DNA of 64,000 nt from Geosiphon pyriformis uo1 (Eukaryota > Fungi > Glomeromycota). Under the pieces are notes generated by a model. That model searched no databases and had not been told where the DNA came from. It saw nothing but the letters and a program-made list of their open reading frames with translations. Below, one piece after another: positions 1 to 48,307 of this stretch. Location of the stretch: the NCBI GenBank assembly GCA_016748015.1, contig JAAOMT010000597.1, forward strand, positions 372,001-436,000, read 5' to 3'. Made by a program: the position numbers and the translations under genes. Every line of letters starts with the position of its first letter. Position 1 is the first letter of the stretch.

Positions 1-495
1 CAATTGCAAGTTAGTATCCCGTCAATAGCCATAATCAAGAGCTATTGTTTCAGTGTGGTTAAGTATCAATTACTATCAACATTTCATGTTGATAGTAGAG
101 AGTTGATTGAGATAGTAAATAATTATTTATTAATATTTGTGAATTAAAAGATTGCTTAGATAAAATCTAAACTGAAAGGTCTGTCTTTTCTACTTCTAAT
201 GCTACCACTATATATACATAATTTAAGTTCTATGAAATCACTTATATTCTCGAGCAATGTGCTATAATTTTTCAAACAATGCTCACATTGCTAAGCAATG
301 TGCTATATTTTCTTGACATTGCTTTATCTTGCTGAGCAATGTACTATGATTTTTGACATTGCTCCACATTGTTAAGCAATGTGCTGTAATTTCTGACATT
401 GCTTCATATTGCTGAGCAATGTGCTCACATGCTAACTACTACTCTCTTATTGGTCTGCTATTTTTCTATATCTGTTTTCTTTTTTCTAAGTAACA
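1..495 (-). repeat. 3' LTR of A (partial)
   Basis: Matches ~9193-9688; ends GTAACA at 495 next to the PPT. Confidence 0.95.
252..424. repeat. U3 ~40-bp tandem array with ACATTGCT-N-AGCAATGT palindromes (A type)
   Basis: About 5 AGCAATGT units; same array at 9445-9617. Confidence 0.9.
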
Positions 496-510
496 TTATC
501 TCCTCTTTTT
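496..510 (-). promoter_or_regulatory. Polypurine tract of A
   Basis: AAAAAGAGGAGATAA immediately before the 3' LTR on the minus strand. Confidence 0.85.
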
Positions 511-1145
511 TAATATTGAGCTTCATCAAAATTTTTGTTTTGAATTAATTCTAATACTTCTTTTTCAAGTATTGTTTGTTCAACTCTGTTTCTCATGTCT
601 TCTACTTGTGTATTGTTCATTCTTTCTTATTGGTTAATGGTTATAGTTTCCATGTCAGAATGTAACAGTATTTCTGGATAGTTCCGAAATATGTTGTATA
701 GTTGGTATATTGTTTTAACATGTAGTGTTGAATTCATTTTCTTTTCAATAAATTTTTCAATTTGTTGTATTATGTCTTGGTTGAATATTCTCTTGGATTT
801 GTTAATATACAACTCCTGAATATTCAACTTTTGACCTAATTAGTAGTAGTAATATGATATTAGAAGTTGTTCTGTTCATTGCTTCCAATTTTCTTTTGTA
901 AGCTCTTCTGTTGGTGCCATAATAGGTATTTTCCCAAAAGTGTTCTTCACTTTTTCTATTAAGTTATCTGTCCAGTTTTTATCATTTTTTGGTGGCCATT
1001 AATATGGTGTATTTTTTGTCTTTCTTTGGGTGTTTTAATAGCAAATTATTTGGTTGTTAATAATAATTTCCATGTCTAACTGTTGTTGACTTAAGGCTTA
1101 GAACAATTGTTGAGCTATAGTGTGAATATGATCTGATATTTCCAT
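510..1145 (-). pseudogene. ORF3 of A, ~211 aa protein of unknown function, with internal stops
   Basis: ATG at 1145 (MEISDHIHTIAQQLF...) to TAA at 510-512 (...NFDEAQY); includes track ORF 627-827; homologous to 47669-48307. Confidence 0.8.
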
Positions 1146-8806: not shown

Positions 8807-9688
8807 TGTTACAGATAATTATTTGGGGTCTCAAATCAAATAACAAATCCATAACTTGGTGCTTGGTTGTTGATATCTAAAGGGTTTATGGATCTGAAAG
8901 TCTTTGTTGTAAAGTCTTTTGTATAATAAACAGAGATTTAATTGATGGTTTTATCTGTAGCTTTTCAAAACTGCAGTTTTGTCAAATTTTTTTCTTAGTA
9001 TGGTGGCCAGTAATCCTTCTGGTAAGCTATTCTCAAATCTATGAGTGTTCTATTCTTGTTTCACAGATCTTTTACCAGTCCCTATGACGTCTGTATTTCA
9101 GCACTTAATTTTTAATCAATTTAGTAAAACCAAAGAAATAACAAAAAAAGAAAACAAAAGAAAACAAAAAAAAATACAAAAACAAGTAAAAGCAATTGCA
9201 AGTTAGTATCCCATCAATAGCTATGATCAAAAACTATTGTTCCAGTGTGGTTAAGTATCAATTACTATCAACATTTTATGTTGATAGTGAAGAGTCGATT
9301 GAAATAGTGAATAATTATTTATTAATATTTGTGAGTTAGAAGATTGCTTAGATAAAATCTAAACTGAAAAATCTGTCTTTTTTTACTTCTAATGCTACCA
9401 CTATATATACATAATTTGGGTTCTATGAGATTGCTTACATTCTCGAGCAATGTGCTATAATTTCTCAAACAATGCTTACATTGCTGAGCAATATGCCATA
9501 TTTTCTTGACATTGCTCTATCTTGCTAAATAATGTGCCATGATTTTTGACATTGTTCCACATTGCTAAGCAATGTGCTGTGATTTCTGATATTGCTCCAC
9601 ATTGTTGAGCAATGTGCTTATGTGCTAACTACTACTCTCTTATTAGTCTGCTATTTTTCTATATCTGTTCTCTTTTTTCTGAGTAACA
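8807..9688 (-). repeat. 5' LTR of A (882 bp)
   Basis: TGTTAC..GTAACA ends, TATA box near 9405, U3 array 9445-9617. Confidence 0.95.
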
Positions 9689-12600: not shown

Positions 12601-13772
12601 AAGTAATGGGGAATTGTTATTGGGTGTACCTTTTAATAGTTTGATTGATTTCCCTGATGATTGGTGCAAAACTGTAATTTCTTGGTAATCTGGTATATTG
12701 AAACAATTCTGTATAAAAATTTTCTCTTGCAGATTTAATGTTAACTGTTCCTCCTAAGCAGTCTGTGATTTTATCATTAACATAAAAGTTGAAGACTGAT
12801 TTTGCTGAAAAATGGTTATTGTTTAATCTTAACTGTTAGCTGTACTGTTAAAACAAGAATTTGGCGAATCCTAAATGGTTTGCTCTTATAATTTCTAATT
12901 CTGCCACTTTTGGATGATTGTTGTTGATGCTGGTTCTCTGTAGGATTATACCTCATAGGGAGCACCAAATATTACAAGTGATTATTTGGAGTCAAAGCAA
13001 ATAACAAACTCATAACTTGGTGCTCAATTGATATAATGGTGTTGATCGGAAGGTATTGTTATCTGAAGGTTTTTGATTAAGTCTTTTGTATAATAAACAA
13101 AAATTCAATAGTTGTTTATCCATAGCTTTCCAGAATTGCAATTCTGTCAATTTTTTTCTTCAGCTTAATGGCTGGTACTTTTCTGATAAGTAATTTGTAA
13201 TTCTTTTACATGCTCTATCCACTTGCAGAGGTCTTTTATTAGGCAATCTTTGATGTTAATAACTCAGTGCTTTAATTTTTTAATTGATTAGTACACAACA
13301 AAAAAAATAACAAGAAAATAAAAAAAATAAAAAAAATAAAAAAAATTAAAGAAATAAGCCAAGATGATAAAAGTTAGTATTCCATCAATAGCCATGATCA
13401 AAAGCTATTGTTTCAGTGTGGTCAAGTATTAATTACTATTAACATGAAGTGTTGATAGTAAAAAGTAGATTTGAAATAGTAAATAATTATTTATTTTGAT
13501 ATTTGTAATGTGAAAGGTTGCTTAGATTAAATCTAAACTAGAAGGTCTGTCTTTTTCTACTTCTAATGCTACCAATATATATACATAATTGAGATTCCTT
13601 AATTTCTTGGTTTTTTACACCAGGAATCCTGCGATTTTTTATATGAGAATCCTGAAATTCTTGGAATCCTGAAATTTTTTTTGAGAGAAATTCTGGAATT
13701 CCACATTTACTATGGCTACTTCTGATTGGCTAATTTATATGCTAATATACTTCTTATGTTCTATGAGTAACA
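9689..13772 (-). mobile_element. Element B (family alpha), 5' part: LTR, PBS, gag, protease, start of Cys-rich insert; inserted in gag of C
   Basis: Colinear with A 5470-9688; LDSGLAG near 10565; right flank is beta gag. Confidence 0.9.
12970..13772 (-). repeat. 5' LTR of B with GGAATCC/GGAATTCC-type U3 array (13590-13703)
   Basis: TATTAC(=TGTTAC)...GTAACA; PBS at 12951-12967. Confidence 0.9.
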
Positions 13773-16437
13773 ACAGTTACTTCTAAACCAATAGCTAATG
13801 ACTCTATACAACAAAACATTCTGATTGCTCTCCAAGATATACAAACTGCTTTAGAATGAAGAAACAATAACCCATTACTATTATTTAAAGATAATACATA
13901 AGATTCTATTAAATAGTTAGATGACTTTGAAAGAACTGCCACAGCCAACCAATATAATAATGAATACAAGTTCCAAATCATTGGTGGCTATCTTCAAAAC
14001 TCTCCTGCTACTTGGTTCTTACAAAAAACCAATATCAATGCTTAGCAAAAAATCATTAGATGGACACTAACAAATGTTAGAGAAAATAACACTTCTTTTA
14101 CTATCTAGTTTGAAATGAAATTTAGAATTTCTATCTTAATATTTAAATGGCATATGGAATTAGAAAGAAGAACTCAAGGCCCTGGTAAAGTTGTAAATAA
14201 ATATGCCAAAGTTATTAGAAAACTAATCAAACAAATAGACTTTGAAAGAAACTAAACAGAAGAACAGAAAATTTACTCCTTTATAAAAAAATTGAGAACT
14301 GATCTTTTATATGCTCTTTGGTTCTAAAAAACTATTCCATAATAAATATGGCCATTAACTTGTCTAATGAATTAAAAACAACCAAAAAATATACTTGAGA
14401 TTCACACTACTAGTTTTTGCTCCTGCTTTTTAAATGGCTGTTACTTTTTTTACTGTTCAAATTCCAGATTCCAATGAACAATTAATAGATAAACTTATAG
14501 CTAATTTTGTCCAGTTACTAGAACCCTTAGTCTAAGCAGTCAAAGATAATCAACAACCACAAAGATCCAGATTTGAACTTCATTTTAATCAGCCCTAGCA
14601 ATTCTCTTATTAAAGGCAGCAAAATTATGGCCCACCTGTATGCTATCACTGTGGATTAACTGGACACTTTTCTAAAGATTGCAACAATTTTTTATTGCTT
14701 TCTTCAGTTCCTAGAAACAATAACAATTAAACCAACAGAACTATTAACAACAATGCCCCTAATCAAAGACTCAATTATGTTAACATCAATTTTTTTGGAG
14801 AGAATCCTCTAGTTAAAGCCACTGTTTATCAGCCTTTAAACTAATAAGCACACTTCCAAAGATTAAGAGTGCAAGCCAACCAGAAAAAAACCTTTTTTAT
14901 GCTTTTAACCTAATTAATAATGATTATGATATAGATGAATTAGCAATTAACACCTCTGAATCAATAAAAAAGAAAAAAAAAGCCAAGATTGATTTCATTT
15001 TGGACCCAAACAAAGCATCCAAATCAATTGTTGATAACAATAAGCCATCAAAGACTAAAATTTTTAAAAATTTTCCAAAGTTAGAACTCCCAGAAATAGT
15101 ACAAAAATCTGGCTTCTATTTTGTTGTTAAAAATCTCATAAAAATTTCAGCACAAATTATATTTGGCCAACTAATAATTCATCTACAGTTCAGAAAAGAT
15201 CTTTACAAATCATTGATACCAAAAAAAAAAACACCAAAGACCAACAAATGCTCCTGTCAAGCTGGACTTGCTGATAATAACAATATTACTTCTTTAATTT
15301 GTAAAGTCCAAGTGGCTGGTTATTTTATTAGTCTAATTCTAAACAGTAGATCATTTGTTAATGTAATTGCCAAACATTTTCTTGAAGCAATTGGCAGAAA
15401 GATTAATGAGCCTTCTACTTGACCAATGACCAATGTATATGATAACAAGAAGAAAGGTCTGGGTATAGCCAAAGCTGTTTCTGTTCATATCAATGATATT
15501 AGCATTAAAACTGACATAAAGATATCTGAAGTCAAGGAATACACAATAATTATTGACAATAAATGGCTCAAAAGTTTTTCTTGATTATAAACTTTGTAAA
15601 CTAACCATTAGATGTGATAAAAAGCTCATTGTGATTAAGTGCTGTTATTAGACAACCTCTCCAGTATTCAAACAAAACCAAGAAAAAGAACAATTAGATG
15701 AATCAAATAATAATGAAAGTGATAAAAAGAAAAATCAAGAAGAACAAAAAGAAACTGTTAAACTCATTTATACTATTTTCACTAGCAATGGCAAGCCACT
15801 GGACAATGTTAAAGCTAACAAAAAAGAAATTATAGTAAATGGCAAGCTGATCTGCTGGTTTTATTATAATATTCTTAAAAGAACCTTTGATAAAAAAGCT
15901 AATAAGAAAGCAAAATACAGTTATTGGTGACATGGTTCTTGTGTCAAATGCTGGTGTAATAAACCTTTGTATTCCTTTAGTAATGAATGCAAGTCCTGTC
16001 TGATCTATTACAAAGATTGGGAGCCAATTAGTTTAATACCCAAAGAAGAGCTAAAAGAAGTACAGAATTCCTTTGAAAGTGAACCATTTGAAATCCAATT
16101 ACTAGTTGTAGAACAAAAAAAACCTTTTTCTGGAAAAAAAAAAAGACATTGAAAATCTGTTAGCTAGAAATAATCCAGTTATCTCAAAAAAAGACGATAC
16201 TTCTAAATGAACCCATGTGATACAACACACTATTACTACAAAAAAAACTTGTCCCATCTATTTGAAGTCTTATCAATCCAATTGACACAATAATGAATTC
16301 ATCAAAAATGAGATAAACTGAATAAAAAATCTTGGATTTATACAAAAAACCAAGAATAAATAAGCTTTTCCAGTTATAGTGGTATCCAAAAAAAGTGGAA
16401 CTCTATGTTTCTGTGTTAATTACTATTAATTAAATGC
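13773..16437 (+). pseudogene. C gag (CCHC near 14640), protease, Cys insert, start of RT
   Basis: Homologous to G 38925-41628; CYHCGLTGHFSKDC. Confidence 0.88.
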
Positions 16438-17396
16438 TGTTACTGGAGGTTTTTGGTCTCTTTTTTGTAATGTTGTTGATACTTATTTGCTGTGAATTTA
16501 CATTTTCTGGATGTGGTTGAACTTCCAGTAACTGAATTTATCTTCAAATTATCTCCTATAATTTGAACTTGCTGGGCTTATAAGTGGAATGGCCAATTCC
16601 ATGCCAGTTGCTTTATGTAGTTATGTTGTAGTAAACATCAACTCTTTCCCAGGAATTGCTTGTCTGGAAGCTCACTAAAAATGTGTAGTTACTTTGCTGT
16701 GAAAGTCAACTCTTCTACAGGAATCTCGTCTGTAGGCTACCCTAATGATTGTAATAAGAAAAAAAAAGAAAAATAAAAGAAGTGTAAAAGAAATAGGATT
16801 TTTATCAAGGGAAACGTTTTCTATCCAGGCCTGGAATCACTAACAGTTTACTGAAATTGGTAGCTAATCAATTTCGAAATGTTAATTGGGTTTTGGGGAT
16901 TTTCCAAGTGCAATAATTAAAGAATTTGGTTTTTCGAATTATTTGATATTTATTTTTTTTTGTGTGTATAGGAACAGTTTTTAAGAAATAAATCTAAAGT
17001 AAGATACATTTTCTCGAAGAGAGAAGCTCTTCTTTTATACAACTTGTTGTAACACTATTCTATGAACTTGAACTTTGCTATTTTCTACAATTTCGCTGAA
17101 CTAAAGATACATTTCGGCAAACTACAAGTTATTTCGGCGAACTATTAGATATTTTCGATGAACTATCAATTATTTCGGTGAATTTCTACAAATTTTGGCG
17201 AACTTCTGAATGTTACATAGTTCGGGGTATTGCATGATTGATCATCGCAATTAGATTACATTTGTGTTGTGTACAATTTGAGTTATTAATTAAATGATAA
17301 TTTCGGACATTTTTGTTAATGTAATAAGTGATCATTTGGAACAATAATATATGCTAATTAATAATAGGAATTATAAGATAATTTCATCTGGTAACA
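16438..17396 (-). repeat. 3' LTR of D (959 bp), with PPT GAGGAGGAGGTTA at 17397-17409
   Basis: TGTTAC..GTAACA; matches 24713-25273. Confidence 0.95.
17090..17205. repeat. U3 ~21-bp-period array of TTCG-G-CGAA palindromes (D type)
   Basis: About 6 units; same array at 24943-25058. Confidence 0.88.
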
Positions 17397-18093
17397 TAAC
17401 CTCCTCCTCAAAACTGAGCTCCGTTGAAGTCCAAGTACTGTCTGTTATTTCCAGATAATAATCCAAAATTATTGAAGAAATTTGGTCTGAAAATTGTTAA
17501 AATTTCAGTTCTGTGAGCCTTCCAATGTATTGAATCTTCAAAGATTGAAAAATTGGGTTTTGTAGTACGTGTTTACAGGTGTGGAATAGATCATAAAGTC
17601 TAAGGGCAGCTCTAAGCCTGTAGCAACTGTTTGTTGATCCAGCTGTTGTCTTGAATTCATTGTAGAGTTGTTTCTGAATAGCTTCTTTTGTGAGATTTGC
17701 TGTTGTAAGTTCCAGTTTCTATTCATAAAGTGTTTTTCCAATGTGAAAATATCTATAGATTGGAGGATATTCAGTGTTTTCCTCATTGAGACACAGTTGA
17801 AGTTTTTGTTGAATTGTAGCATTTGGTGGAATATTAATTGGAGTGAGCATTAGGTTTTCTCTTAAAGCAAGCTTTAAAAGTTCTGACAGGTAAATTCCAG
17901 TATAACTTCTTGTGTTCTTTTTATACAGGTGATATTTTCGTGAATTTGGGGCTAAATTTGTAACTACTTCTGTTTGGGTATAATTTATGTGGTTTCCAGT
18001 AACAGTAATGGATAATTCGGGTATTGTTTTTAAAACTAACATTAGTTTTTGGGATAATTGTTGAATGTTTTGAGGAATAGTTATTATAAGCAA
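17371..18093 (-). pseudogene. ORF3 of D (~240 aa), runs through the PPT into the LTR
   Basis: One frame with two internal stops: IPQNIQQLSQKL..YRYFHIGKTL..AALRLYDLF..ELSFEEEVMLPDE. Confidence 0.8.
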
Positions 18094-18201
18094 TTGAAAA
18101 TAAAATAAAAATTATTTTGGTGTATGGGTTTTTATGTTATTTTTGTTTTTGTTTTTGTGAGATTGTTTCTAAATTATAAGAGAATAACTAGTAAAATTAA
18201 A

Positions 18202-19587
18202 TTAAGTGTTCAGGTTGGAAGGTTGTTCAATGACAACTATTGGTTCTAAGTTGCAGAGAATATCTTTGGGACTGACCAAAGGGGAATGTATACCAACTTG
18301 TGGAATTAATGGTTCAGGATTGTTTCTGGAATAATAGTGTTTCAAACGATCTCCATGTGCAACTTTTGCTAGGATTTTGTTATCAAGTCTTAGCTTGTAT
18401 GATCCATTGCCTAGGACTTCATGAATAAAGAATGGTCCATTCCATTTATTTTCAAATTTTCCACTCCATTGTTTTTCAGCTTTAGTTCTGTGTAAGAGAA
18501 CTTTGTTTCCAATTTTAAATTCATTGGTGACTGAAGACAATTTGTCATCATGCCGTTCTTTTTGTTGAGCTTGGGAGTGTTCAATATGGGTGGCTGCTAT
18601 TTGTTGTTTTCCTTCCAATGTGCTAAGTAGAGTGTAGGCTCTTCGCTAAAGCATTTCTTGGAAATTGTTTTCATTGATTGGTTGTGCTGGGTATGTTTCC
18701 ACTGTGAAACTAATTGGTAACATTGCCATCCTTCCATAAGTTAAATCAAATGGTGTGTGTTTCGTGGTGTCTTGTTTTAATGTCCTATATGCTAGTAACA
18801 CTGATGGAATAAAGAGATCCCATTCTTGATCAAAATCGGTTGAGACTTTGGCTAATGACTCACACAATGTTCTGTTAAAACATTCCACAAGTCCGTTTGT
18901 TTGTGAATGGTAGGACAAAGACAGAGGTCTTTTGACATTAAATCGTTCACAAATTTCTTGTATCAGGTTGTTCACAAAGTGTGTTCCCTGATCAGATAAA
19001 AGTTCAATTGGACATCCATGTCTACAAATGATGTCTTCGTAGATGAAATTTGCTACTGATTTTGCATCTGCTCATTGAATGGCTCTGGCTTCAGGCCATT
19101 TAGTAAGATAGTCTACAGCTACTGCAATATAACGGTTTCCTTGAGTGGTGATAGATAGTGGTCCGACTAAATTGATACCAACTCTGTCAAAAGGCTGTCC
19201 AACTTTGATTGGATTTAAAGGTTCTGTAGGGCGAGTTCCTCCTCTTCTTTGACAACTATCACAAGATTCGACATATTCGTGAATGTTTTTTCTTATTCAA
19301 GACCAGAAGTAGTATTCTAGTGTTCTTTGAGTGGTGCTATTTTTTTTGAAGTGTGCTGATGAAGGATTCGAGTACATGTTGTATAAAATGGTCTTTTTTT
19401 CTGGTTCTTGTATTAATCTGAGTGGTTTGGTTGGGTTTTTGAAATTTTGATAATAGATAATGTTGTTGTGTAGAAAATATTGTTTGGCTTGTTGTTGTAA
19501 CCGATGTTTTTCATCTGGGGATCAATCAGTTGGGATTGTTAATGTCTCCAAATATTGTTTGAGATTGTTGTAGTTTTTGGGGTTCAT
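18202..19587 (-). pseudogene. Integrase of D, own ATG (MNPKNYNNLKQYL)
   Basis: HHCC-like region, LSDQGTHF, QTNGLVE, KWNGPF; 462 codons. Confidence 0.92.
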
Positions 19588-19636
19588 TGTTTGTTGTTTT
19601 GATGCTGTTAATTCAGATGGGTGTTGGTTTTGTTTT

Positions 19637-22600
19637 CTAATCTTGTCTCATTCTTGAGAGACAATCAACGTTGGTGTGGAGTTTTCCTGGTTTGTGGTGT
19701 ACAATGTATTGGTAATTAGCTAAAAATTCTGTCCATTGGGTTTGTTTTGTGTTCAGCTGGGTGTTTTTGTTTTGAAGCCATTTAAGTCCAATATTATCAG
19801 TGATAATATTGAATTCTTTGGGTCTGAGGTAAAGGTTGAAGTGATGTAGGGCCCAGATTACTGCTGCAGTTTCTAATTCTGTTGTGGGGTAGTTTTTTTT
19901 GGCTGGCTTTAATGTTCTACTAGCATAAGCAATTACTCGCTCATTTCCATTGTCATCTAACTGTGATAGGATAGCACCAAAGACAGTATAAGAGGCGTCA
20001 GTTGCTAACTGGAATCGGTTGCTAAAATCTGGGTAGGCGAGGATTGGAGCTGTTGTGAGTTTTTCCTTAAGTATTTCAAAGGCATTTTGGTGTTCTTCTG
20101 TCCATTTGTATTCGATATTTTTAGTAGTGAACTGGTTGAGAGGTTTTGCAATTTCTGAGAATCCTTTGATGAATTTTTGGTAATAGGATGCTAATCCAAT
20201 AAATCCTCTTAATTCTGTGGTATTTCGTGAAGTCTTAAAGTTTTTGACAGTACTGATTTTTCCGGAGTCTGGTTTAATTCCATCTTTACTAACAATGTGA
20301 CCAAGAAAAGCTAAACTTGTTTTTTCAAAGTAGCATTTTTCAATGTTTAGTTTCAATCCTGCTTTCTGTAATCATTGAAAAACTTCTCGCAGGTGACTTA
20401 AATGTAGCTCGAAAGATGGTGAATAAACATCAGTGTCATCAAGATAAACTACTACTAATTTCCAAAGGAGTCTTTTGTAAACAACATCCATGAGTCTTTG
20501 GAATGTTGCTGGTGCATTGCATAATCCAAAAGGCATTACATTGAATTCATAATTTCCTTCTTGAGTGGTGAATGCTGTTTTGGGGCGGTCTTTGGGATCC
20601 ATAGCAACTTGCTAGTATCCACTCTCTAAATCTAATGTTGAAAAGTATTTGGACTTTCCAAGAGCATCCAACATGTCATCAATTCGGGGAAGAGGGTAGG
20701 CATCCCCAATGGTGACACTGTTGAGTTGTCAGTAATCAACACAAAATTGTATCTTTCCATTTTTCTTTTTAACTAGAACCACAGGTGAGGATCATGGACT
20801 CATTGATGATTGAATAAGCCCATTGTTAAGCATCCATTGTACTTCTTCTCGAATAAATTGGTGACTTTCTGGAGCAACTCGGTAGGCTTGTTGTTGCCTG
20901 GGTTTGGCATCTCCTGTATAGATTTGGTGTTGAACCAAATCAGTTCTTCCTAAGTCATTGTTGTTTTCGGCGAAAATATTAGCAAATTCTGCAATTAGTT
21001 CTTTGAACTGGGTCTGTTGTTGTAGTTCAAGTTGTCCCATGTTGATTCGAGATAGTTTTTCTATGACAACATAGTAGTTTTCAGAGCTAAGGTTTGGGTT
21101 GATTTTCAGTAGTAAATGTCCAATAATTTCAGGGAAATCGGGGACTGTTTGGGGTAATTCTTGTTGAAATATATTATTGTGAATAACTCCAATTTCTAAA
21201 TTATTTAACAAAATTATGGGGTAATTATTGGGGTTGTAAAAAGTAACTCGGACTTTCTTTGTTCCTTCTGGAATATAAATGTTTGGGATCAAAATATTAT
21301 GTTCCAAGCAGATTTGTTCATTGGATTCAAAAATTTGTTGTGTAGTTGTTGGCTTTGTGCAAGTATAGATTTCCGGATGTTCTCCAAAAGGTGAGATGGT
21401 AATCAGTTGTGGAAGTCTGAGAATCTGGTGGGATTTGTTCTGTGTGTTAAAAGCTATATTAACTGGAACTGTGAATCGTCCAGTTGAACCAAAACCTTGG
21501 GTTCCTCTATCGCTTTTTCCTAATTGTTCTCTTTAATTGACTAGTTGCAACCCCGAAATGTTGATTAAGGGTAGGTAAATAGCTTGGGCAATTTTTTCAG
21601 CATGTTCGATCTTGAATGGTTTGTCAGTTTCATTTTGAAGCATCACTGTTATGTCTCCAGTATATCCAGCATCAATAATTCCTTCTCTGCCATTGATTTC
21701 TTTGCTTGTCAGAGAGGACCGAGAGGTAATTTGAACCATTGCTCCTGGCAGGATTTCGAGTGCAATTTTGAGGTTGATTTTTGTGAGAGATTTGGGTTTG
21801 AGAACAAGAGTATCCTTGCCTGGATATTTTAGGTCATATCCAGCATCAATTTTGTGTGCCTTTTTGGGTTTTATTCCTTGTCCATTGTTGTTGAAGTATT
21901 TAAGTTGTAAAGCAGGCTGATTTTCAATAAGGTAGCTGGATGTTGTTTCAATTTCTTTTGTTTCTTCAGATTCTTCAAATTCAATTTCATTCTCATCATT
22001 CTCACTGGGCAAGGGAATACTAAGAGCATAGCATTCAGAACACCACTGTTCATCGCAAGGCATAATGCATTCTTCACATAGCCTAATGTTCATTTGCTCT
22101 AATCATTGAATTTGAGCTTCTTGGGTCGAGTAGGTGTGACTTGCAATTTGGTAGTAGACTTCTACTTTATCTTCATAATCGAATCCAGCTAATTCCATAG
22201 TGTATTCAATGTATTCTGCTTCCTTCATTTGACGAACATTTTCTTTGGTAGCTCCATTAATTAATGCCATTGCTAAGTCAAAAATCATCTCGGCATCATG
22301 AGGGTAGTGATAAAGTTTGTTGAGAGCACTATTGTATGCTGCATTAAAGGGTGTTCTTCTTTTTACTTTTTCTGAAATTGATAAAGCATATTGGCAGGTC
22401 TGATCGCAGACACCTCCTCTCATTGCTACATCAATTCAATTGCATTCTTCTGGTAGCATATCTCCACAAGTCAAACAAAGGGTGTTGTCCCATTTTCTGC
22501 TCCTTTTTATTAGATGGTCCCATCACTCTCTGTGACAAGCCTTGCAGTAATAACAAGTATGATTCTCATATTCTTCTTCAGGTGAAATGCAGGCTCCCAT

Positions 22601-24692
22601 TGACAATAGTTTTTTGTGGCAGTCCTTACATTTAAGGGGAATATAGGGGCGTTGTTTTTTTGGTTCGGGTTTTGAGTAAGGTATATTCTATCCAGAGGTT
22701 TCGGGTTTAGTGTGTGGGTTAAAATGTTGTTGTTCTGTTTCATCAGCCCAGTTGAACGTTGATCCAAGAGCCATGAATGTTTCGATTATTGGTTTTTCTT
22801 CTTCTGGTTCAAATTCAAAAGCTGGGGCTTTTTTAGAATGTTTGTTGAATGTACTACAAATGGCAGGTACTCAGGCATGTTGTCCTTGGTAGGAGATTGT
22901 TAACTCTTGTGTTTCCCAATTCAGATTAGCATTGGCTTTTTGAAGCCAATCATTTCTGACGAGAGCTTGGTACTGGGATGCGTTCATTACAAGAACTTTG
23001 ACTGGAATGGTGATTCTGTCAAGAGTGAATGGAAAATTGTTAATTTCTCCTACTGGTGTCTTTTTCATACCATCAGCAGTGACAATTACTGTTTGAGCTG
23101 GTCAGTCGACATTTCTTTTCAACTGTTGCATTAACTGATAGGTAATAATGCTTCTGGCGGATCCCCTGTCTAGGATCAAGCGAATGGGCTTTCCTTCTAC
23201 TTCAGCTTCTGTGTACATTACAGTGATGGCTTTTTGCTCATTAGCCGCTGCATTGCTAAGCAAGAATGGTGATTCATTTGCTTTAAATTCAAAAGGAAAG
23301 ATATCAGAGAGATTGGTGTTTTCAGCAATTCAGGCTGGTGGAATAGTAGTGTGGTTATGAGAAGGGTTTCGTTGTTGTTGTGCTGCAGCTCTACCTTCCG
23401 AGGGTGCAGTATGGTGAAAATTCTGTTCTTCCGGCATTGTTAAATAACTGGGTTGAGTGTGGTAATGGTTGGGTCTTGGTTGAGTGGTATTTCGGGGAAC
23501 CAATTGGTCGTTCGAACTGATTCTACTGTTGTTTACTTGGTATCAGTTTTGTGGTGTGAATTGATTTTGTGTAATCAGTCTTCGAGCAGGTACTTGATAA
23601 TGTTGTGTGAATGGTTGTTGGTATTGCTGTTAGATTGGTTGTGGGGCAGGCTGATAATAGTTATTTTGGTATTGGGGTCTTGGTGGATAGTAAGCTGGTG
23701 GTGATAATTGATAATAAGATTGCTGTGGTTAAGAGTAACGTTGATTACCCCTATTTTGTTGGTCTCGTTGTAGCTTTCTGCAATCTCTTTTCCAGTGGCC
23801 AGAGATTCTACAGTAATGGCAATTCTGGGGCTGGTTATTAGAAAGTGGTGCAAAGTTATTTTGATTTCGTCTTTGGGGTGGTTGATATCTTTGGGGTTGT
23901 TGTTGTTGTTAATTGGTAAAATAGTTTTCGACCTTCTTTGTGAGTTGGTCAATTTTTTCCTCAGCTGCTGAGCTGAGTTCTCCAATTGCCAAATTTACAA
24001 GTTTTGTACAATTGGCTTCTTTTATGGCCATTTCGTATCTTTTTGCATGCTGTATGGCAGAGTTTAAATCTTCTGGTGTGTGTGGGCGAACCTTTTTAAT
24101 TAGTTTATCTTTTAGACCAGCAATAAATTGATCCAAGATTTGAGCATCGGAATAATAATTGTTTGTCTCGAGTTGGTGAATCCATCTGAGAAGTTTGTTG
24201 AATTTCCCAATATAAGTCATAACAGATTTGGAGGGTTCTTGTTTGATATTTCGAAAATGATTGCGAAGAGTGATAGAGGTATTATTGTCAGTGAACTGTT
24301 CAAGGAAGGCTGCTTTGAAAGCATTCCAATCATTGAATGGGGTGGCAAGGTTTTCAAACCATTCTTCTGCTGTTCCTTTGAGAAAGTAGAGAATTGTTCT
24401 TAACATTCTGGCAGTGTTCCATCCATTTGCATCTTCAGCTTTAGTAACTTGGTCGAGCCATTCTTGGGGACTGGTCTCAATATCTTCTCCATTGAATTCA
24501 GGGATTTTTGCGATGTATGTTGTCATTTTGTTTTCTTCATTTTCACTGTCTATTGATTTTTCTTCAGTTATTTCAGAGTTGTTTTCTTCATTTGCTACTG
24601 TCTCAGAGTGTTCACTTAGATTTTCAGCTAGAAAATCAAGGAGATTGGAACTAGTTTGAAGGGGTTCTTGTTGTCTGGTGGGACTTCTGAGT
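19637..24692 (-). pseudogene. gag-PR-Cys-rich-dUTPase-RT-RNaseH of D
   Basis: Gag KIPEFNGED; CHYCRIPGHWKRDC; LDRGSA; MPFGLCNAPATFQ; YLDD; ATDAS..ELE..TDN. Confidence 0.94.
21478..21870 (-). pseudogene. dUTPase domain of D
   Basis: All five motifs: AGYDL, SRSS, GIIDAGYTGDI, EKIAQ, RGTQGFGSTG. Confidence 0.95.
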
Positions 24693-24712
24693 NNNNNNNN
24701 NNNNNNNNNNNN
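24693..24712. other. Assembly gap (20 N) hiding D's gag start, PBS and U5
   Basis: N run; ~420 bp of LTR seen in the 3' copy is missing here. Confidence 0.97.
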
Positions 24713-25273
24713 GTAGCTAATCAATTTCGAAATGTTAATTGGGTTTTGGGGATTTTCCAAGTGCAATAATTAAAGAATTTGGTTTTTCGAATTATTTGAT
24801 ATTTATTTCTTTTTGTGTGTATAAGAACAGTTTTTAAGAGATAAATCTAAAGTAAGATACATTTTCTCGAAGAGAGAAGCTCTTCTTTTATACAACTTGT
24901 TGTAACACTATTCTATGAACTTGAACTTTGCTATTTTCTACAATTTCGCTGAACTAAAGATACATTTTGGCGAACTACAAGTTATTTTGGCAAACTATTA
25001 GATATTTTCGGTGAACTATCAATTATTTCAGCGAATTTCTACAAATTTTGGCAAACTTCTGAATGTTACATAGTTCGGGGTATTGCATGATTGATCATCG
25101 CAATTAGGTTACATTTGTGTTGTGTACAATTTGAGTTATTAATTAAATGATAATTTCAGACATTTTTGCTAATATAATAAGTGATCATTTGGAATGATAA
25201 TATATGCTAATTAATGATAGGAATTATAAAATAATTTCATGCTAAATAATATCTCTAATTTCGTCTGGTAACA
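24713..25273 (-). repeat. 5' LTR of D (partial)
   Basis: Near-identical to 16860-17396. Confidence 0.95.
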
Positions 25274-27283
25274 ATGCCATCACTATAAGAGACATGTATC
25301 TATTCCCCAAAATTAGTGCAATACTAAATAAATTCAATGGTACTGCTTTCTTCTCAACCATTGACTTAATTGCTAAATTCTGGCAAGTAGAGATAGATCT
25401 AAAAAGCAGAAAAAAAACTGCTTTTATTACCAAGTATAGCATCTATGAATTTACAGCTATGTCTTTTGGTTTTACTAATGCCCCTTTCATCTTTCAATAC
25501 CTAATGAACAAAGTGTTTGAATTAGTAAAAAAAACTTTGTTCTAGTCTACTTAGACGATATAATAGTATATTCAAAAACCTGGGATAAATATTTTAAACA
25601 CTTGCAAAAAGTTTTTGATCTGTTTAAAAATGCTGGTCTCAAGATAAACTTAATTAAATCTTTCTTTGGATGTTAATCCACCCAGTTTCTTGGTCATCTT
25701 ATTATAAAAAATAAAATTTTCTCTGATCCAACTAAGGTTGAAAAAGTCCAGAACATTAGACAATCAATAAATGTTTTTGAATTATGCTTTTTTCTTGGTT
25801 TGGCTTCTTACTATCACAAATTTATCAAAAATTTCTCCAAAATTGTCTTTCCTCTCAATCAGCTACTTAGAAAAAATGTCAATTATCACTAAAGCACTCA
25901 TCAACAAAAAGCTTTTGAAATTCTGAAAAAAAAACTTGTTACTAAACCAATTCTTAAGCAACCTGATCTAAACCAACTTTTTATCTTTTATACTGATATA
26001 TCTGGTTATAGACTTAGTACTGTTCTCTCACAAAAAGATGAAGATGGCAGAGAACATGCTATAGCATATGTTAGTAGATTCTTTATACCAGCAGAGAAGA
26101 ACTATTTAGTAACTGAACAAGAATACTTAGCAGTAGTTTAGACTACTAGTTACTGAGATCAATATCTTCTTGGTGTGAAATTCTTAGTAATAACAAATCA
26201 TCAAGTCTTGGTTTGGCTGTACAATAAAAAAAAGCTAAAACACAAATAAATAACCTACTAGATACTTCATTTGGATGAATTCGACTATGATATTCAATAC
26301 TACAAAAAAGCAAATCATCAAAACGCTGATATTTTTTCTAGACTTACTATCTAGTAACAGTACAAGCTTCTTAAACCAATCTATCTTAATTATTAGTAAC
26401 TCCTCTTTTAACAAACACAATAATAGACTTGAACAACTACTCTGCCTTAATAGAATTTTTGGATAAAGAACAATACCCACCAGAATACACTTAACAGCAA
26501 AATGAACATTTGCACAAACAATTAAATTTCTATTTGATCTGTTAAAACCAATTATATAAAAGAAACAGAAAAAATCTTGACCACCTCTAGAAAGTCATAA
26601 GATTTAAAAAAAGAGAAATTGTGATCTACAACATGCATACTAATCCATTAGCTAGACACTTTGGAAAAACAAAAACAATTCAGAAAACTTTACTATTATT
26701 GGCCTATCTTGGGAAAGAATATTATTGAATATATTAAAACCTGTGACATTTGCCAAAGAAGAAGCAAACCCAATTGCAAAGAAAATATCTATTCAATTTC
26801 TGTGGATCAACTATTTGACAGAATTGATATAGATGTTGTTAAATCTTTAACAATAACTTCTGATGACAACAAATATATTATTACATATTGACTATCTTAC
26901 AAAGTGAGTAAAAGCAAGAATCACTCCAGACCAAACAGCAGTTTTAATAGCCAATTTCATTTATAAAGATATTATTTGTTATCATGGCTACTCCAAAGAA
27001 CTTTTATCTAATAAAGAAAAAGCTTTTCTCAGTACACTGATTAAAGAACTTTGCAGAAAAATGGGAATATATTATAAACTTTCTTCTTCTTACTACCCTC
27101 AAACAAATGGCCTAGTAAAACGTTTTAATAGAACACTATGTAAAATCTTAGCCAAAACCAATAAAGAAACAAACTTATAGGACAAAATACTGCCTTCAAC
27201 TTTGTTTGCTTATAGAACTGTAAATTATAATATAACAAGTTATAAATCTTTTTATTTGCTTTATGGACATATGGCAATACTAC
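25274..27283 (+). pseudogene. C RT-RNaseH (stop 26355-26357) and integrase N-part (from 26423)
   Basis: YLDD near 25550; HTNPLARHF..CDIC; homologous to G. Confidence 0.88.
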
Positions 27284-27947
27284 TGTTACAGGTTGGAGTA
27301 ACAAGCTAATGGATAACAAGGGAGAACAGAATTGTAGGGTGATAGAAATAATCAAAGATGAATTCAACTTTAAAGAGTGAATTGAATGAGTATGGATTCA
27401 ATGTGTGAGATCAGTTTCATAAAATATCTCAGTCACTATTCTTTTCAAAGGTAACTGGAGAATTTGAAGGTAGAGGAATAGTCTGTACTGTCAACAATTA
27501 ATCATCACTAGTATAATTCTATGCCTCACATCAGCACTCTTAGAATTTAATATCAGGTATCAACTTGTGCTTTTCAGTTACGTTTATTCAAATAATCTTT
27601 AAATACTTCATTTAATCATTTCAGAAAAAGGCAGATAAACACCAACAAGAAATCTTTTATCCAAAAGATGTTCAGATACTTGAAGGTAAGGAAAGAAAAA
27701 TTAGTGATAAAAGAATGTTTGAGATAAAAGTTGTTTTATTATATTTCTTTAATTATTGGAACATACATTTTTATAGCTAAGAGACTTATTGCTTATATAG
27801 CTATGAAAAGTGGTCAACAATCAGATCAATGATCAAGTCAATGATCAGGTCAATGATTACTATCTAAAAATAAGTTGGCTAATTATATGACATCAGTAGC
27901 TAATACATGTTGTTAACTAATAAAAACTATGAGTTTCAACCATAACA
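27284..27947 (-). repeat. 3' LTR of E (664 bp; 4 x 12-bp units at 27813-27860)
   Basis: TGTTAC..ATAACA; matches 34279-35002. Confidence 0.95.
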
Positions 27948-28573
27948 TCATTTTCTTCAAAAAAATTGAGCTCCGGCAAAATCAAACTATTTATGGGATA
28001 TTCTAATTAAAGGGTTTTATCTAACTCAAAACTAACTAGTTTGTTAAAGTCTTTTGTGGATAAAATGTATAGTACTTAAGGCGAAATGAGCTTTGTATCC
28101 AAGAGACCAAACTTTTGTATAAGAGTTTTGGCTCTTCTGGCAATAGTCAAAACTCTTAGAACATCCAACCATATAATGCCCAAAATTTCCACTTGTATCT
28201 CAGAAGTTGTTTTCTTCATGAGCTTTATGTCTTCTATGATTTTACCAAGATGACCATAGAGCTCTAGTTGTCTTCCATATAACAAGTTTTTGTCTATGGG
28301 CAAGATTTTTTTAATCATTTTTCCAATTGTGGTGGAAGATACAAGTATTGCTGCTATTATGCTTTCCAACAGATACTTATCTATTTTGCTACCAATTCTT
28401 TCTCTTCTGGTAGTTGTTTTCTTTGGTCTGATAACAGTATGAGTTCTACTGTTGTCAGTTATTGTGGTCTGTTTTCCAATAGTCAGGGTAGCATTTGAAT
28501 AGTTTTTGATCCAATACTCATAGAAAATATAGAAAGCATTTTGAATGTTTTGATCCAGAAAATAATTGTTCAT
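27917..28573 (-). pseudogene. ORF3 of E (219 codons), ends inside the LTR
   Basis: MNNYFLDQNIQNAFY...; same 657-bp span in C (36364-37020) and G (44118-44774). Confidence 0.85.
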
Positions 28574-34278: not shown

Positions 34279-35002
34279 TGTTATGGGTTGGAGTAACAAG
34301 TTAACGGATAGCAAGGGAGAACAGGATTGTAGGGTAATGAAAATAATCAAAGGTGAATTCAACTTTAAAGAGCAAATTGAATGAGTATGGATTTAATGTA
34401 CAAGATCAGTCTCATAAAATATCTTAGTTGCTATTCTTTTCAAAGGTAACTTGAGAATTTGAAGGTAGAGGGATAGTCTATACTGTCAACAATTGATCAC
34501 CACAGGTATAATTCTATGCCTCACATCAGCACTCTTAGAATTCAATATCAGGTATCAACTTGTGCTTTTCAGTCACATTTATTCAAATAATCTTCAAATA
34601 CTTCATTTAATCGTTTTAGGAAAAGGCAGATAAACACCAACAAGAGATTTTTTATTCAAAAAATGTTTAGATACTTGAAGGTAGGGAAAGGGAAATTAGT
34701 GATAAGAGAATGTTTGAGATAAAAGTTGTTTTATTATATTTCTTTAATTATTGGAACATACATTTTTACAGCTAAGAGACTCATTGCTTATATAGCTATA
34801 AAAAGTAGTCAACAACCAGGTCAATGATTAGGTTAATGGTCAGGTCATTGATCAGGTCAATAATCAAGTCAATGATCAGGTTAACAGTCAGGTTATTGAT
34901 CAGGTCAATAATTACTATCTAAAAAAAAGTTGGATAATTATATAACATCAGTGGCTAATACATGTTGTTAACTAATAAAAACTATGAGTTTCAACCATAA
35001 CA
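34279..35002 (-). repeat. 5' LTR of E (724 bp; 9 x 12-bp GGTCAATGATCA units at 34807-34914)
   Basis: 60 bp longer than the 3' LTR, equal to 5 extra units. Confidence 0.95.
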
Positions 35003-36363: not shown

Positions 36364-37020
36364 ATGAACAATTATTTTCTGAATCAAAACATTCAAAATG
36401 CTTTCTATACTCTCCATAAGTATTGGATCAAAAACTATCCAAATACTACTCTGACCATTGGAAAACAAACCATCATAACTAATAACAGTAAAACACATGC
36501 TGTTATTAAACCAAAAAAAACCACTACCAGAAGAGAAAAAATTGGTAGCAAAATAGATAAATATCTGTTAGAAAGTATAACAGCAGCTATACTCTTATCT
36601 TTTAGCACAATTGGAAAAACAATCTAAAAAATCTTGTCTATAGACAAAAATTTGTCATATATTAAGCAATTAAAACTCTATAGTTGCTTTAGAAAAATCA
36701 TAAAGGATATGAAACTTATAAAGAAAACAACTTCAGAAATACAGGCAGAAATTTTGGGCATTATATGATTAAATGTTCTAAGAGTTTTAATTATTGCTAA
36801 AAGAGCCAAAACTCTAATACAAAGATTTGGTTTTTTGAATACAAAACTCATTTTGTTTCAAGTATTATATATTCTATTCACAAAAGACTTCAACAAACTA
36901 GTTAGCTTTGAGTTAAATAAAACTTTTCAAATAGATTACATCATGAATAGCTTGATTTTGCTGGAGCTTAATCTCTTTGGAGAGAATAATATTATAGTTG
37001 AAACCTATACTTCTTATTAA
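36364..37020 (+). pseudogene. ORF3 of C
   Basis: Homologous to ORF3 of E and G; track ORFs 36268-36627 and 36835-37020. Confidence 0.82.
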
Positions 37021-44117: not shown

Positions 44118-44774
44118 ATGAACAATTATTTTCTGGATTAAAACATTCAAAATGCCTTCTATACTCTTTATGAGTATTGGATCAAAAACTATCCAAATAC
44201 TACTTTGATCATTGGAAAACAAACCATTATAACTGATAACAGTGGAACACATACTGCTATTAGACCAAAAAAAACTACTACCAGAAGAGAAAAAATTGGT
44301 AGTAAAATAGATAAATATCTGTTGGAAAGTATAACAACAGCTATACTCTCACCTTTCAGTACAATTGGAAAAACACTTTAAAAAATCTTACCCATAGACA
44401 AAAACTTGTTATATGGAAGGCAATTAGAACTTTATGATTACCTTAGTAAAATCATAGAGGATATGAAACTTATGAAAAAAACAATTTCAAAAATACAGGC
44501 AGAAATTTTGGGCATTATATGGTTAGATGTCCTAAGAGTTTTAATTATTGCTAAAAGAACCAAAACTCTAATACAAAGATTTAGTTTTTTGAATACAAAA
44601 CTCATTTCACCTCAAGTATTATATATCCTATCCATGAAAGACTTCAACAAACTAGTTAGTTTTAAGTTAGATAAAACTTTTCAAATAGATTACACCATAA
44701 ATAGCTTGATTTTATCAGAGCTTAATCTCTTTGAAGAAGATGATATTATAGTTGAAACTTATACTTCTTATTAA
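44118..44774 (+). pseudogene. ORF3 of G
   Basis: 657 bp, homologous to ORF3 of C and E. Confidence 0.83.
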
Positions 44775-45449
44775 TTATTACATGTATTAGCCACTCTATT
44801 TTTAGAAAGTAATCATTGATCTGATTAATAACTTAACCATTGATCTAATTATTGACCTGATCATTGACCTGATTATTGACTTAATCATTGACCTAGTTAT
44901 TGACTTGATTATTGACCATTTTTGATAGCTATATAAGCAATAAATTTCTTAGCTATAGAAAAGCATGTAAAAATCAAGAAAATCAAATAAATAAAATAAC
45001 AACTTTTATCTTAATTATTCTTTTATTGCTAATTTTTCTTTCTCTACTTTTAAGTATCTAAACATCTTGGGATAAAAGATTACTTGTTGGTTATTTCTTA
45101 CCTTTTTTCTGAAACATGTAATTGCAGCATTTAAAGATTATTGAATAAAATGTGACTAAAGAATACATCTGATATCTGATATTGAATTCTAAGAGTGCCA
45201 ACATGAGGCATAGAATTATACCAGGCATGATCATTTGTTAACAGTATGGACTATCCTTTTACTTTCAGATTTTTTGGTTATCTTTTGAAAAGTATAGTGA
45301 CTGGGATATTTTATGAGATTGATTTTGTATATTGAATTCATACTTATTCAATTCACTCTTTGAAGTTGAATTCCTTTTTGATTTTTTTTATCACTCTACA
45401 AATCTGTTCTCTCTTGCTATCTGTTAGCTTGTTACTTCAACCTATAACA
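44744..45449 (+). repeat. 3' LTR of G (9 x 12-bp units)
   Basis: Matches 37674-38422. Confidence 0.93.
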
Positions 45450-46789
45450 ATATTATTATTTTCTAATACACTTAAAAAAACAGTTAAAAAAATCTTGCCT
45501 ATAGATAAAAATCTGTTATATAAAAGACAATTAGAGCTTTATGGTTAACTTAGTAAAATTATAGACATAAAGCTCATAAAAAAAACAACTTTTAAGATAC
45601 AAGTAAAAATTTTAGGCATTATATAGCTAAATATTTTCAGAGTTTTGATTATTACAAAAAAGCCAAAACTTTTATATAAAAATTTAATCTCTTAAATATA
45701 AAGCTTATTTTGCTTTAGATACTATATATTCTATTTACAAAAGACTTTACCAAACTAGTTATTTTAAGTTAAATATAACTTTTCAAATAGAATATTTTAT
45801 AAATAATTTGATTTTACTAAAGCTTAATCTCTTTAGAAAGAATAATATTATTGTTAAAATCCATAATTTTTTTTAGTTATTATATGTATTAGTTATTAAT
45901 ATTATATAATTAGCCACTTTATTTTTAGATAATAATTATTAATTTAATCATTAACTTAATTATTGACCTAATTATTAACTATTTTCAATAACTATATAAG
46001 CAATAAATCTCTTAGTTATAGAAAAATATATAAGAATATATGTAAAAAATTAAAAAAATAAAACAATATTTATTAATTCAATCTTTTTTTTATTGCTTGT
46101 TTTTTTTTCTTTATTCTTTATCTTTAAGTATTTGAATATCTTAGAATAAAAGATTCGAATTTAGTTGGCATTTTGGGTTGTCTGTTTGCACATAGATTAC
46201 ATGATCTGCAAGTGCTTAGCTGAAATTTTCATTATTTTTTGCTTTTTCCATCTTGTGTTAATATTGATCTGTTAAATAATTTTTTAACTGGTGTAGTCCA
46301 TATTTTTTTGAAATGTAATCTGTCTCTGGGTGGTTTTGTAACTAATGCTTTTCGTTTCCAGAGTGGTACCTCTTTGTCTCTTGTTCTTGGTAGTTCTAAG
46401 TTTTTCAAATGTGTTTTTTCACTTCAATAGTATGAGATTGCTTTTGCTAAACAGCTTTACAATTGTGTTGATGCAGTTTTTGATTGAAAAACATTTAAGT
46501 GGTGAAAAAAATTGGATCTGTATTGCCCAATTCCAAACTGGTTTGGGCTTTCTGTTTATTTTTTTAATGGTGCTCTTTTTTTTTTCATTTGTTCTTTTCT
46601 TTCAGTGGGCATTGATTCATTGAACATTCTTGAGTCTCATAAATTTAGAGTTATTTGTGACTGTTTGTTGGGTGTTGATGCTGGTTGCCTTTTTGTTTAT
46701 ACAGATGAATCTCTTAGCAGTTTGAGAACTCTTGACATGAAGGCTGGTACAGCAGTTTTTTTTGAGAATATTGATTTGGATTTGGGTGT

Positions 46790-47654
46790 TGTTACAGATG
46801 ATTATTTGAGATCTCAAAGCAAATAACAAATCTGTAACTTGGTGCTTGATTAGTATTCTGGTGTCGATATCTGAAGGTTTGGTTGATCTGAAAGTTTGTT
46901 GTAAAGTTCTTTGTATAATAAACAAAGATTTAATAGTTGTTTCAGTAGTCTCCCGGAATTGCAATTCTGTTAAATTTTTTTCTTAGTGTGGTGGCTGGTA
47001 ATCTTCCTGGTAAGCTATCCTCAAATCTATGAGTGTTCTACCCTTGTTTCATGGGTCTTTTACCAGTTCCTATGATGTTTGTATCTTAGTGCTTAATCCT
47101 GAATCAATTTAGTAAAACCAAAGAAATAACAAAAAGAAATAAAAGAAAATAAAAGAAGATAAAAAAATAAACAAAAGCAATTGCAAATTAGTATTCCATC
47201 AATAGCCATGATCAAGAGCTATTGTTTTAGTGCAGTTAAGTATCAGTTACTATCAACATAAAGTGTTGATAGTGGAGAGTAGATTGAAATAGTGAATAAT
47301 TATTTATTAATATTTGTGGATGGAAGGTTGTTTAGATTAGATTTAAACTGAGAGGTTTTTAACTAAAGGATTCTGTCTTTTCTACCTCTAGCACTACTGC
47401 TATATATACATAATTGAGATTTCTCAATTTCTCAATTCTTTACACCAGAAATCCTAGAATTCCTGAAATCTTGTAATTCCTTTTGAAAGGAATCCTGGAA
47501 TTCTGGAATCCTGTAATTTCTTGTACAAGAATTCTGAAATTCCTGGAATCTTGCAATTCCTCTTAAGAGGAATTTTGGAATTCCATATTTACTATGACTA
47601 CTTCTGATTGGCTAATTTATATGCTAATATACTCTCTATGTTTTATAAGTAACA
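46790..47654 (-). repeat. 3' LTR of F (865 bp; GGAATCC/GGAATTCC array at 47416-47585)
   Basis: TGTTAC..GTAACA. Confidence 0.95.
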
Positions 47655-47668
47655 TTATTCTCTCCTTT

Positions 47669-48307
47669 TTAATATTGAGCTCCATTGATATCTTCCAAGT
47701 CTTCTAACTCTACTTCTCTGTCTTTGAGTATTTTTTGAACTTCTTTTTCAAGAATTACTTGAGTTATTTTGTTTTGTAATTCTTCAAATTGGATGTTGGT
47801 TATTTTTTCCATTTGATTAACTGTAATAAAGTCCATTTCTGAATTCAGTAAGATTTCTGGTCTGTCTTGAAATCTAGTATGTAGCCAATAAATAGCTCTT
47901 GCTTGTGTAGTTAAATTGTTTTTTTTCACAAATTGTTCTAGTTGTTGCAGTATAGCTGTATCAAATAATTATTTTGTTTTATCCGTGTATAAGTTCTGAA
48001 TATTTAAGTATTATCCCAAGTGGAAATAACAAAAATTTCTTGGAAATTTGTGTATCCACTATTTTCATGTTTTTTTGGTCAACTTTTGATATGTGGTGAC
48101 ACTTGTTGATTTTTCTATTGCTAATTTTATTTTCAGAACTATTTTGTTGATAGTGTTTTCTGTTTTCCTTTAACTTTTGTATTTGGGTATCTTTTTGGTA
48201 TCTTGGTATCGAATGGTTTGTTGATTGATAGTAATTTCCATATTCTGTTGTTGAATTAATTGGAATAGTTGTTGTGCTAGTGAGTGAATATTGTCAGTAA
48301 TTTCTAT
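47669..48307 (-). pseudogene. ORF3 of F (213 codons)
   Basis: (M)EITDNIHSLAQQLF..YFHLGxYLNIQNLY..INGAQY*. Confidence 0.82.

Follow-up and report, generated by a model that had tools for sequence, protein, structure and literature searches.

The Ty3/Gypsy elements of Geosiphon pyriformis carry a sense gene of 210-240 amino acids, ORF3, between the integrase and the 3' LTR. Profile comparisons indicate that the ORF3s of two divergent families, alpha and gamma, are homologous and that the ORF3 of a third family, beta, is probably a remote relative, and comparisons between alpha elements indicate that ORF3 and the U3 enhancer have been exchanged as one block at least once. We propose, with a probability of roughly 45%, that ORF3 works in the nucleus on the LTR of its own family, which it would activate or protect from silencing in the manner of foamy-virus Tas or of VANC. 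The basis of this reading is the position of the gene, its conservation, the repeat arrays upstream of the TATA box and the block exchange.

The stretch of DNA analyzed here (64 kb, hereafter the window) consists of decayed LTR elements inserted into one another; its GC content is 22-40% and its CpG observed/expected ratio 0.13. The gamma ORF3 is present once, that of alpha twice and that of beta four times (Table 1). Like the sense accessory ORFs (aORFs or ORF3s) of other elements, ORF3 is in sense orientation, lies between pol and the 3' LTR, and is kept across copies and lineages. The gamma element has the domain order PR-RT-RH-IN and a Ty3-type capsid, as expected of Ty3/Gypsy. Its ORF3 begins with ATA, where intact copies have ATG, and is interrupted at 17719-21 and 17497-99; the intact gamma relatives are 239 amino acids long. 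Every ORF3 peptide quoted in the initial annotation of this DNA was found in the sequence at its proper place. The annotation had also noted that ORF3 reads through the polypurine tract (PPT) into U3 in gamma and beta, and this is the case over 26 nt in gamma and about nine codons in beta; the alpha ORF3 stops immediately ahead of the PPT. Since the gamma and beta ORFs are read across the PPT, it is the purine tract that sets their acidic tail, at least in part, and for this reason the PPT-coded tail was removed from the decisive alignment test of beta (see below).

Table 1. Positions of ORF3 copies, U3 arrays and parts of the gamma element in the window
Feature	Position	Strand	Remarks
gamma element, Ty3/Gypsy	16438-25273	minus	LTRs with TG...CA ends; ATGC target duplication
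gamma target duplication ATGC	16434-16437 and 25274-25277
gamma 3' LTR	16438..17396	minus	TGTTAC...GTAACA
gamma 5' LTR	24713..25273	minus	interrupted by N gap; 96.4% identical to 3' LTR over 528 bp
gamma gag-protease-dUTPase-RT-RNase H	19637..24670	minus	single frame; has stops
gamma integrase	18202..19587	minus	stand-alone ORF; H2C2, rve, weak SH3-like match; has stops
gamma ORF3	17371..18084	minus	decayed; no ATG, 2 in-frame stops; final 26 nt inside U3
gamma polypurine tract	17397..17409	minus	translated as acidic C-terminal codons of ORF3
gamma U3 tandem array	17090..17204	minus	20-21 bp period, AGTTCGCCGAAAT-like units, CpG retained
gamma TATA-like box	17032-17039	minus	downstream of U3 array
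alpha1 ORF3	510..1145	minus	211 codons, 6 stops; stop just before PPT
alpha1 U3 array	244..425 (also 9421-9618)	minus	40 bp period, palindromic CACATTGCTnAGCAATGTG-like units
alpha2 ORF3	47669..48307	minus	41-43% identical to alpha1 ORF3 (integrases 79% identical)
alpha2 U3 array	47450..47561	minus	CAGGAATTC-like units; array of the same type in the alphaX LTR (13623-13701)
beta1 ORF3	27917..28573	minus	218 codons, 2 stops; probable remote member
beta2 ORF3	36364..37020	plus	2 stops
beta3 ORF3	44118..44774	plus	2 stops
beta ORF3 remnant no. 4	45444..45873	plus	frameshifted
beta U3 array	44810..44917	plus	12 bp ATCATTGACCTG-like units
further beta U3 arrays	27812-27857, 34808-34912, 37767-37892		ATCATTGACCTG-like units

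The ORF3 family and its protein

Pairwise BLASTP comparison of the alpha, gamma and beta ORF3s gives no match in any of the three pairs. Profile-profile comparison, in contrast, aligns 170 columns of alpha and gamma (E 6e-4), and both the alpha ORF3 (HHalign 98.65%, E 4.8e-16) and the gamma ORF3 (99.58%, E 6.7e-24) are matched by A5, a metagenome profile. From these profile alignments we conclude that the alpha and gamma ORF3s are homologous, bridged by two metagenome relatives. A search of 1.84 billion representatives with the gamma profile yielded 35 matches; the 10 that were looked up comprise two unnamed metagenome proteins and eight Geosiphon models, among which are two further Geosiphon ORF3 subfamilies. 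On the metagenome contigs, L001 and L002, the order is the same, namely integrase end, spacer and ORF3, and the ORF3 of L001 is intact and crosses the same PPT into an LTR. The spacer is about 700 nt long in L002 (135-850, very AT-rich), compared with about 120 nt in gamma and 320 nt in L001.

Across at least six lineages, ORF3 keeps its length of 210-240 amino acids at a global identity of approximately 20-37%. The distances among ORF3s broadly track those among pol sequences, although ORF3 diverges about twice as fast; for example, gamma and L001 are 29% identical in ORF3 and 58% identical in RT and integrase. For three pairs of beta ORF3s, dN/dS is 0.18, 0.26 and 0.48, values that include neutral decay after insertion, and the integrase controls are similar (0.36 and 0.44). 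The stable length, the same slot in L001 and L002, and the beta dN/dS values suggest that ORF3 is kept as a protein.

Matching relatives of ORF3 number at least 194 for gamma (among 543 candidates), at least 126 for beta (among 362) and 6 for alpha (among 145). The gamma and beta relatives listed (120 each, 240 rows in total) are all Geosiphon pyriformis gene models, up to 90% identical. Even without the regulatory mechanism proposed below, the family gives a name to the many 'hypothetical' gene models in these at least 194 gamma and at least 126 beta clusters. No confirmed relatives were found in viral contigs, prokaryote genome contigs or phages, and a search of bacterial genomes produced a match in one of 301 (E 0.049). 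The ESM Atlas gave weak, mostly unnamed leads with the gamma ORF3 and, with P0277, an unnamed Mucoromycota cluster (0.94, 176 shared features, 98 members) that serves as a lead only. ORF3 may also resemble a Rhizophagus protein family.

The initial annotation had placed all three families together. This holds for alpha and gamma, whereas the membership of beta is probable and not significant by HHalign, although significant profile-profile similarity was the criterion that the annotation had set. The E-values for beta are 0.29 against gamma, 0.66 against alpha and 0.51 against A5, with a probability that never exceeds 2.2%; against a 14-sequence family profile, the E-value of 0.022 refers to the N-terminal 30 columns only, and the score obtained with the -glob option lies within those of shuffles. 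However, a semi-global profile alignment with the PPT-coded tail removed shows the full-length beta ORF3 to be collinear with the family at z 5.6 (0 of 200 block shuffles), and all eight single beta proteins (z 4.4-7.1) exceed all 18 unrelated gag/pol stretches (maximum 3.3). The same test gives z 2.5 for the beta core alone (6 of 200 shuffles), and a test of this kind with the alpha profile alone gives z -1.0. These two values, the HHalign results and the absence of the PY motif described below would fit an unrelated gene in the same slot, so that the family would comprise alpha- and gamma-type elements only. We regard this as unlikely: in addition to its collinearity, the beta ORF3 has the length and slot of the others and the same PPT-flanking DNA motif, and beta pol is likewise the most distant (integrase 32-46% identical to gamma). 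Beta ORF3 probably belongs to the alpha/gamma family as a remote member.

The protein had been described from the outset as something other than Env and as having no recognizable named domain, and both statements are borne out. A Kyte-Doolittle scan of nine ORF3 proteins detects no hydrophobic segment resembling a signal peptide or a transmembrane anchor: the mean over 19 residues peaks at 0.44-1.61, and the segment with the value of 1.61, in a beta ORF3, has charged residues. No Env profile or fusion-protein fold is among the matches listed in the Pfam and structure searches. Searches against Pfam, PHROGs, NCBIfam and PDB sequence profiles give nothing over the curated cut-off or at E <= 0.001, and there is no Foldseek match at E <= 0.001 and no significant match in BFVD. 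Pfam and Foldseek, which the initial annotation had named as checks, give no confident match to Env or to any named domain.

A first AlphaFold model, built from 33 close gamma sequences, was set aside (pLDDT 45.8; fold search Z <= 6.8, a three-helix piece). The second model (pLDDT 66.8, core about 90) consists of a low-confidence N-terminus with a helix and a beta-hairpin, a disordered linker, and a confident all-helical core (residues 81-200), in which the conserved motif pattern is kept. Four fold searches with this model give no significant match (best Z 5.5, in 48,161 chains), and the N-terminal part is barely covered. Note that the lack of a listed fold match does not demonstrate a new fold.

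The core has a possible likeness to the ParB-type helix-turn-helix (HTH) families, for which the expected register was set before testing. HHalign comparisons with HTH_ParB (PF17762), DUF3102 (PF11300) and DUF1016_N (PF17761) give E 0.017-0.51. The weak ParB-type matches that fall in the expected register have E 0.017-0.032, whereas known relatives reach 0.003-0.005 or better in the same test. Rows for Spo0J and Raf1 cover the core at Z 3.8-4.0, but TetR-family rows are as high (Z 4.0-4.3), and the shuffle test for the ParB HTH is negative, yet it also misses two of the three known pairs. The helix order of ParB/Spo0J-type HTH domains is similar to that of the ORF3 core, but none of the matches is significant, and the likeness serves as a lead.

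The linker (pLDDT < 50, net charge +1 to +8) contains, in 8 of 10 ORF3 proteins, the pattern R/K/H-X2-5-PY, which is given as the core of PY-type nuclear localization signals (PMC2408616). The motif is missing in beta and in the window copies of alpha2 and gamma, the last of which has LY. The site is matched by 98 gamma models, of which 62 read PY and 33 LY or SY, a pattern expected from C-to-T decay. The two metagenome ORF3 proteins are acidic (pI 5.4 and 5.9).

U3 arrays and their exchange together with ORF3

In each of the five ORF3 types with a visible U3 (gamma, alpha1, alpha2, beta and L001), a TATA-like box is preceded by an array of short repeats. The plan of the array is common to all types, whereas the repeat unit is different in each. 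The gamma LTR contains 12 CpG where 9 are expected (16900-17396) and 9 where 9 are expected (24760-25273); the alpha and beta LTRs contain 0-2, and their arrays do not retain CpG. The retention in gamma may reflect either youth or protection from methylation. The gamma units also contain CGG, which is typical of fungal Zn2Cys6 sites.

Motifs of the U3 type also occur inside some elements. In L001, three of the four best internal matches lie in the spacer before ORF3, with scores below those of true units; in beta, the motifs upstream of ORF3 rank only fifth and sixth, and in gamma, alpha1 and alpha2 there is none upstream of ORF3 among the best internal sites. TATA-like words 42-56 nt upstream of the ORF3 start (alpha, beta and L002) were discarded as too common in AT-rich DNA to count.

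The relationship between ORF3 and U3 is clearest in the two alpha elements of the window, which are approximately 85% identical at the DNA level in integrase and R-U5 and in which ORF3 and the pre-TATA part of U3 differ as one block. The integrase and spacer (77-95%) and the segment from the TATA box through R-U5 (79-92%) contain differences that are almost only transitions. Between these segments, over ORF3 and the pre-TATA part of U3, the identity is 43-67% with many transversions. One boundary of the block is a sharp one at the TATA box, and the other lies close to the beginning of ORF3. Synonymous sites are saturated in ORF3 (pS 0.77) but not in integrase (pS 0.25).

A third element, alphaX, was compared through its U3 and gag; its ORF3 lies outside the window. 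Upstream of the TATA box, the U3s of alpha1 and alpha2 are 46% identical, as are controls (44-47%), whereas those of alpha2 and alphaX are 84% identical. By contrast, gag groups alpha1 with alpha2 (79%) against alphaX (72-74%). Because the alpha2 U3 matches the gag-distant alphaX and not alpha1, we conclude from these alignments that at least one exchange moved ORF3 and the U3 enhancer together.

A similar but weaker pattern is seen between beta1 and beta3. In the segments 27700-28000 and 44740-45050, transversions rise to 13-15 per 150 nt, compared with mostly 1-3 elsewhere, and the rise spans the ORF3 end through U3.

Possible functions of ORF3

Fungal LTR retrotransposons are treated as gag-pol elements relying on host transcription factors. 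The movement of a conserved accessory gene together with the U3 enhancer suggests that some fungal elements carry a regulator of their own, and this could account for their spread in a genome that is strongly depleted of CpG and probably methylated. In the mechanism that we propose, ORF3 would be made from its own mRNA, via an internal promoter or a splice, and imported into the nucleus through the PY-type signal; it would then bind the tandem array in the U3 of its own family and either switch on the LTR promoter or keep it unsilenced. Also in line with this reading are the PY pattern in the linker of 8 of 10 proteins and the CpG kept in the gamma U3. The block exchange and the family-specific arrays suggest a testable function for ORF3, for which the initial annotation had offered none, and if the reading is true, the pairs of ORF3 and array would form a set of orthogonal protein-DNA switches.

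Two known systems are close to this mechanism. Foamy-virus Tas, like ORF3, is encoded by a gene of about 250 amino acids that lies 3' of the structural genes beside the 3' LTR, and it binds the LTR and an internal promoter (PMC4929722), which the candidate U3-type sites before ORF3 in L001 recall. However, no sequence or fold link between Tas and ORF3 was found, and here the host is a fungus, env is absent and the binding is putative. VANC of the Arabidopsis VANDAL elements is, as ORF3, a fast-evolving accessory protein paired with element-variable tandem repeats, its targets being tandem repeats that vary between related elements (PMC5735166). Family-specific tandem repeats in regulatory DNA, which this comparison leads one to expect, are found in 5 of 5 types. 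VANC differs in its origin, Mutator-type DNA transposons, and in its structural relationship to MAIN (PMC13547354); ORF3 has no such match.

Several observations count against a regulatory role for ORF3. Structure searches identify no DNA-binding fold; both metagenome proteins are acidic; beta and the window copy of alpha2 are without the PY motif; a copy of the U3 motif as an internal promoter is supported in only one of five families (L001); the arrays of alpha and beta do not retain CpG; and the beta dN/dS values are blurred by post-insertion decay, with similar integrase controls. Moreover, ORF3 adjoins U3, so that any crossover pair moves both, and the block represents a single exchange event. 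The arrays may also serve host factors, and subfamily-specific U3 arrays are commonly host-factor enhancers, which the CGG in the gamma units would fit.

These last points lead to a different reading, in which ORF3 would counteract host defence in general, whether RNAi or chromatin silencing, via protein contacts, and the arrays are host-factor enhancers that travel with it through adjacency, which would suffice to explain the block. The faster evolution of ORF3 than of pol (29% against 58% between gamma and L001) fits such an antagonist, as does the targeting of Rhizophagus Gypsy elements by methylation and small RNA reported in 10.1101/2021.03.30.436303. Nevertheless, the exchanged block covers just ORF3 and the array, from the ORF3 start to the TATA box, and the helical core keeps its conserved motif pattern; we consider an antagonist of this type rather unlikely.

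Somewhat less likely still is that ORF3 acts on the element RNA, either in nuclear export, like Rev or CERV, or as a chaperone in the particle. The basic linker with its PY-type signal would suit this role, and Cer1 of C. elegans provides a precedent in a Gypsy-type element: its novel accessory protein CERV is nuclear, is translated from a spliced mRNA and is needed for export of the genomic RNA (PMC10309623). The likeness of CERV to ORF3 is one of description only, and the nuclear location of ORF3 is putative. Pfam and fold searches found neither an RNA-binding fold nor a zinc knuckle in ORF3. Packaging and export signals are usually in R-U5 and gag, and it was the U3 enhancer that moved with ORF3 whereas R-U5 and gag stayed with the backbone. 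Finally, an Env-like or membrane protein moving particles between cells has nothing but the env-slot position in its favor and is highly improbable, given a protein with no hydrophobic signal or anchor, only 0-3 cysteines, a soluble helical model and no viral fold match.

If ORF3 is a regulator of its own LTR, a broader and more tentative reading would be that the activator or anti-silencer encoded by the elements is sequence-specific and has a fold that the PDB does not yet contain, and that ORF3 and its U3 operator array form a swappable lock-and-key cassette, which may be exchanged on a shared gag-pol backbone to change regulatory identity.

Extra sense ORFs after pol are already known. The aORF-3S described by Vicient and Casacuberta (2020, PMC7264820) agree with ORF3 in position, in orientation and in their presence in most copies of a family, but most of those described are env-like, have transmembrane segments and belong to insects or plants; ORF3 is soluble and fungal, follows a stand-alone integrase ORF and, in gamma and beta, extends across the PPT into U3. 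Bdelloid rotifer LTR elements (PMC5408684) also have a non-Env third ORF in Gypsy-type elements, some with a dUTPase, as here. The rotifer ORF3s are a GDSL lipase, a DEDDy exonuclease or Env-like, and the present ORF3 has no such Pfam match. The family described here is unnamed in the libraries searched. A literature search, whose scope left aside the Geosiphon genome paper, Repbase and supplements, found no description of it, and the term 'ORF3' is absent from the accessible portion of a paper on LTR retrotransposons in fungi (PMC3248453). A repeat-library entry may exist. What appears to be new here, judged from sequence, is that ORF3 and the pre-TATA U3 differ as one block and that each family has its own U3 array.

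Other features of the gamma element and the window

The ATGC target duplication of the gamma element is compatible with a decayed CpG-centred site. Owing to a gap of 20 Ns at 24693-24712, the primer-binding site and the inner portion of the 5' LTR are missing. The integrase is an ORF of its own, with the pol stop directly after RNase H, both in gamma (19587-19637, minus) and on the metagenome contig L001 (774-802). Between protease and dUTPase, the gamma frame contains a Cys-rich stretch with several CxxC pairs (approximately 22000-22650, minus) that has no match in Pfam and is possibly an unnamed zinc-binding domain. Elsewhere in the window (58900-64000, minus, and 56820-58189), a frame for a reverse transcriptase of non-LTR type was recognized by eye, with an RNase H-like region after it, and a 64% identical remnant lies close to the alpha2 5' LTR.
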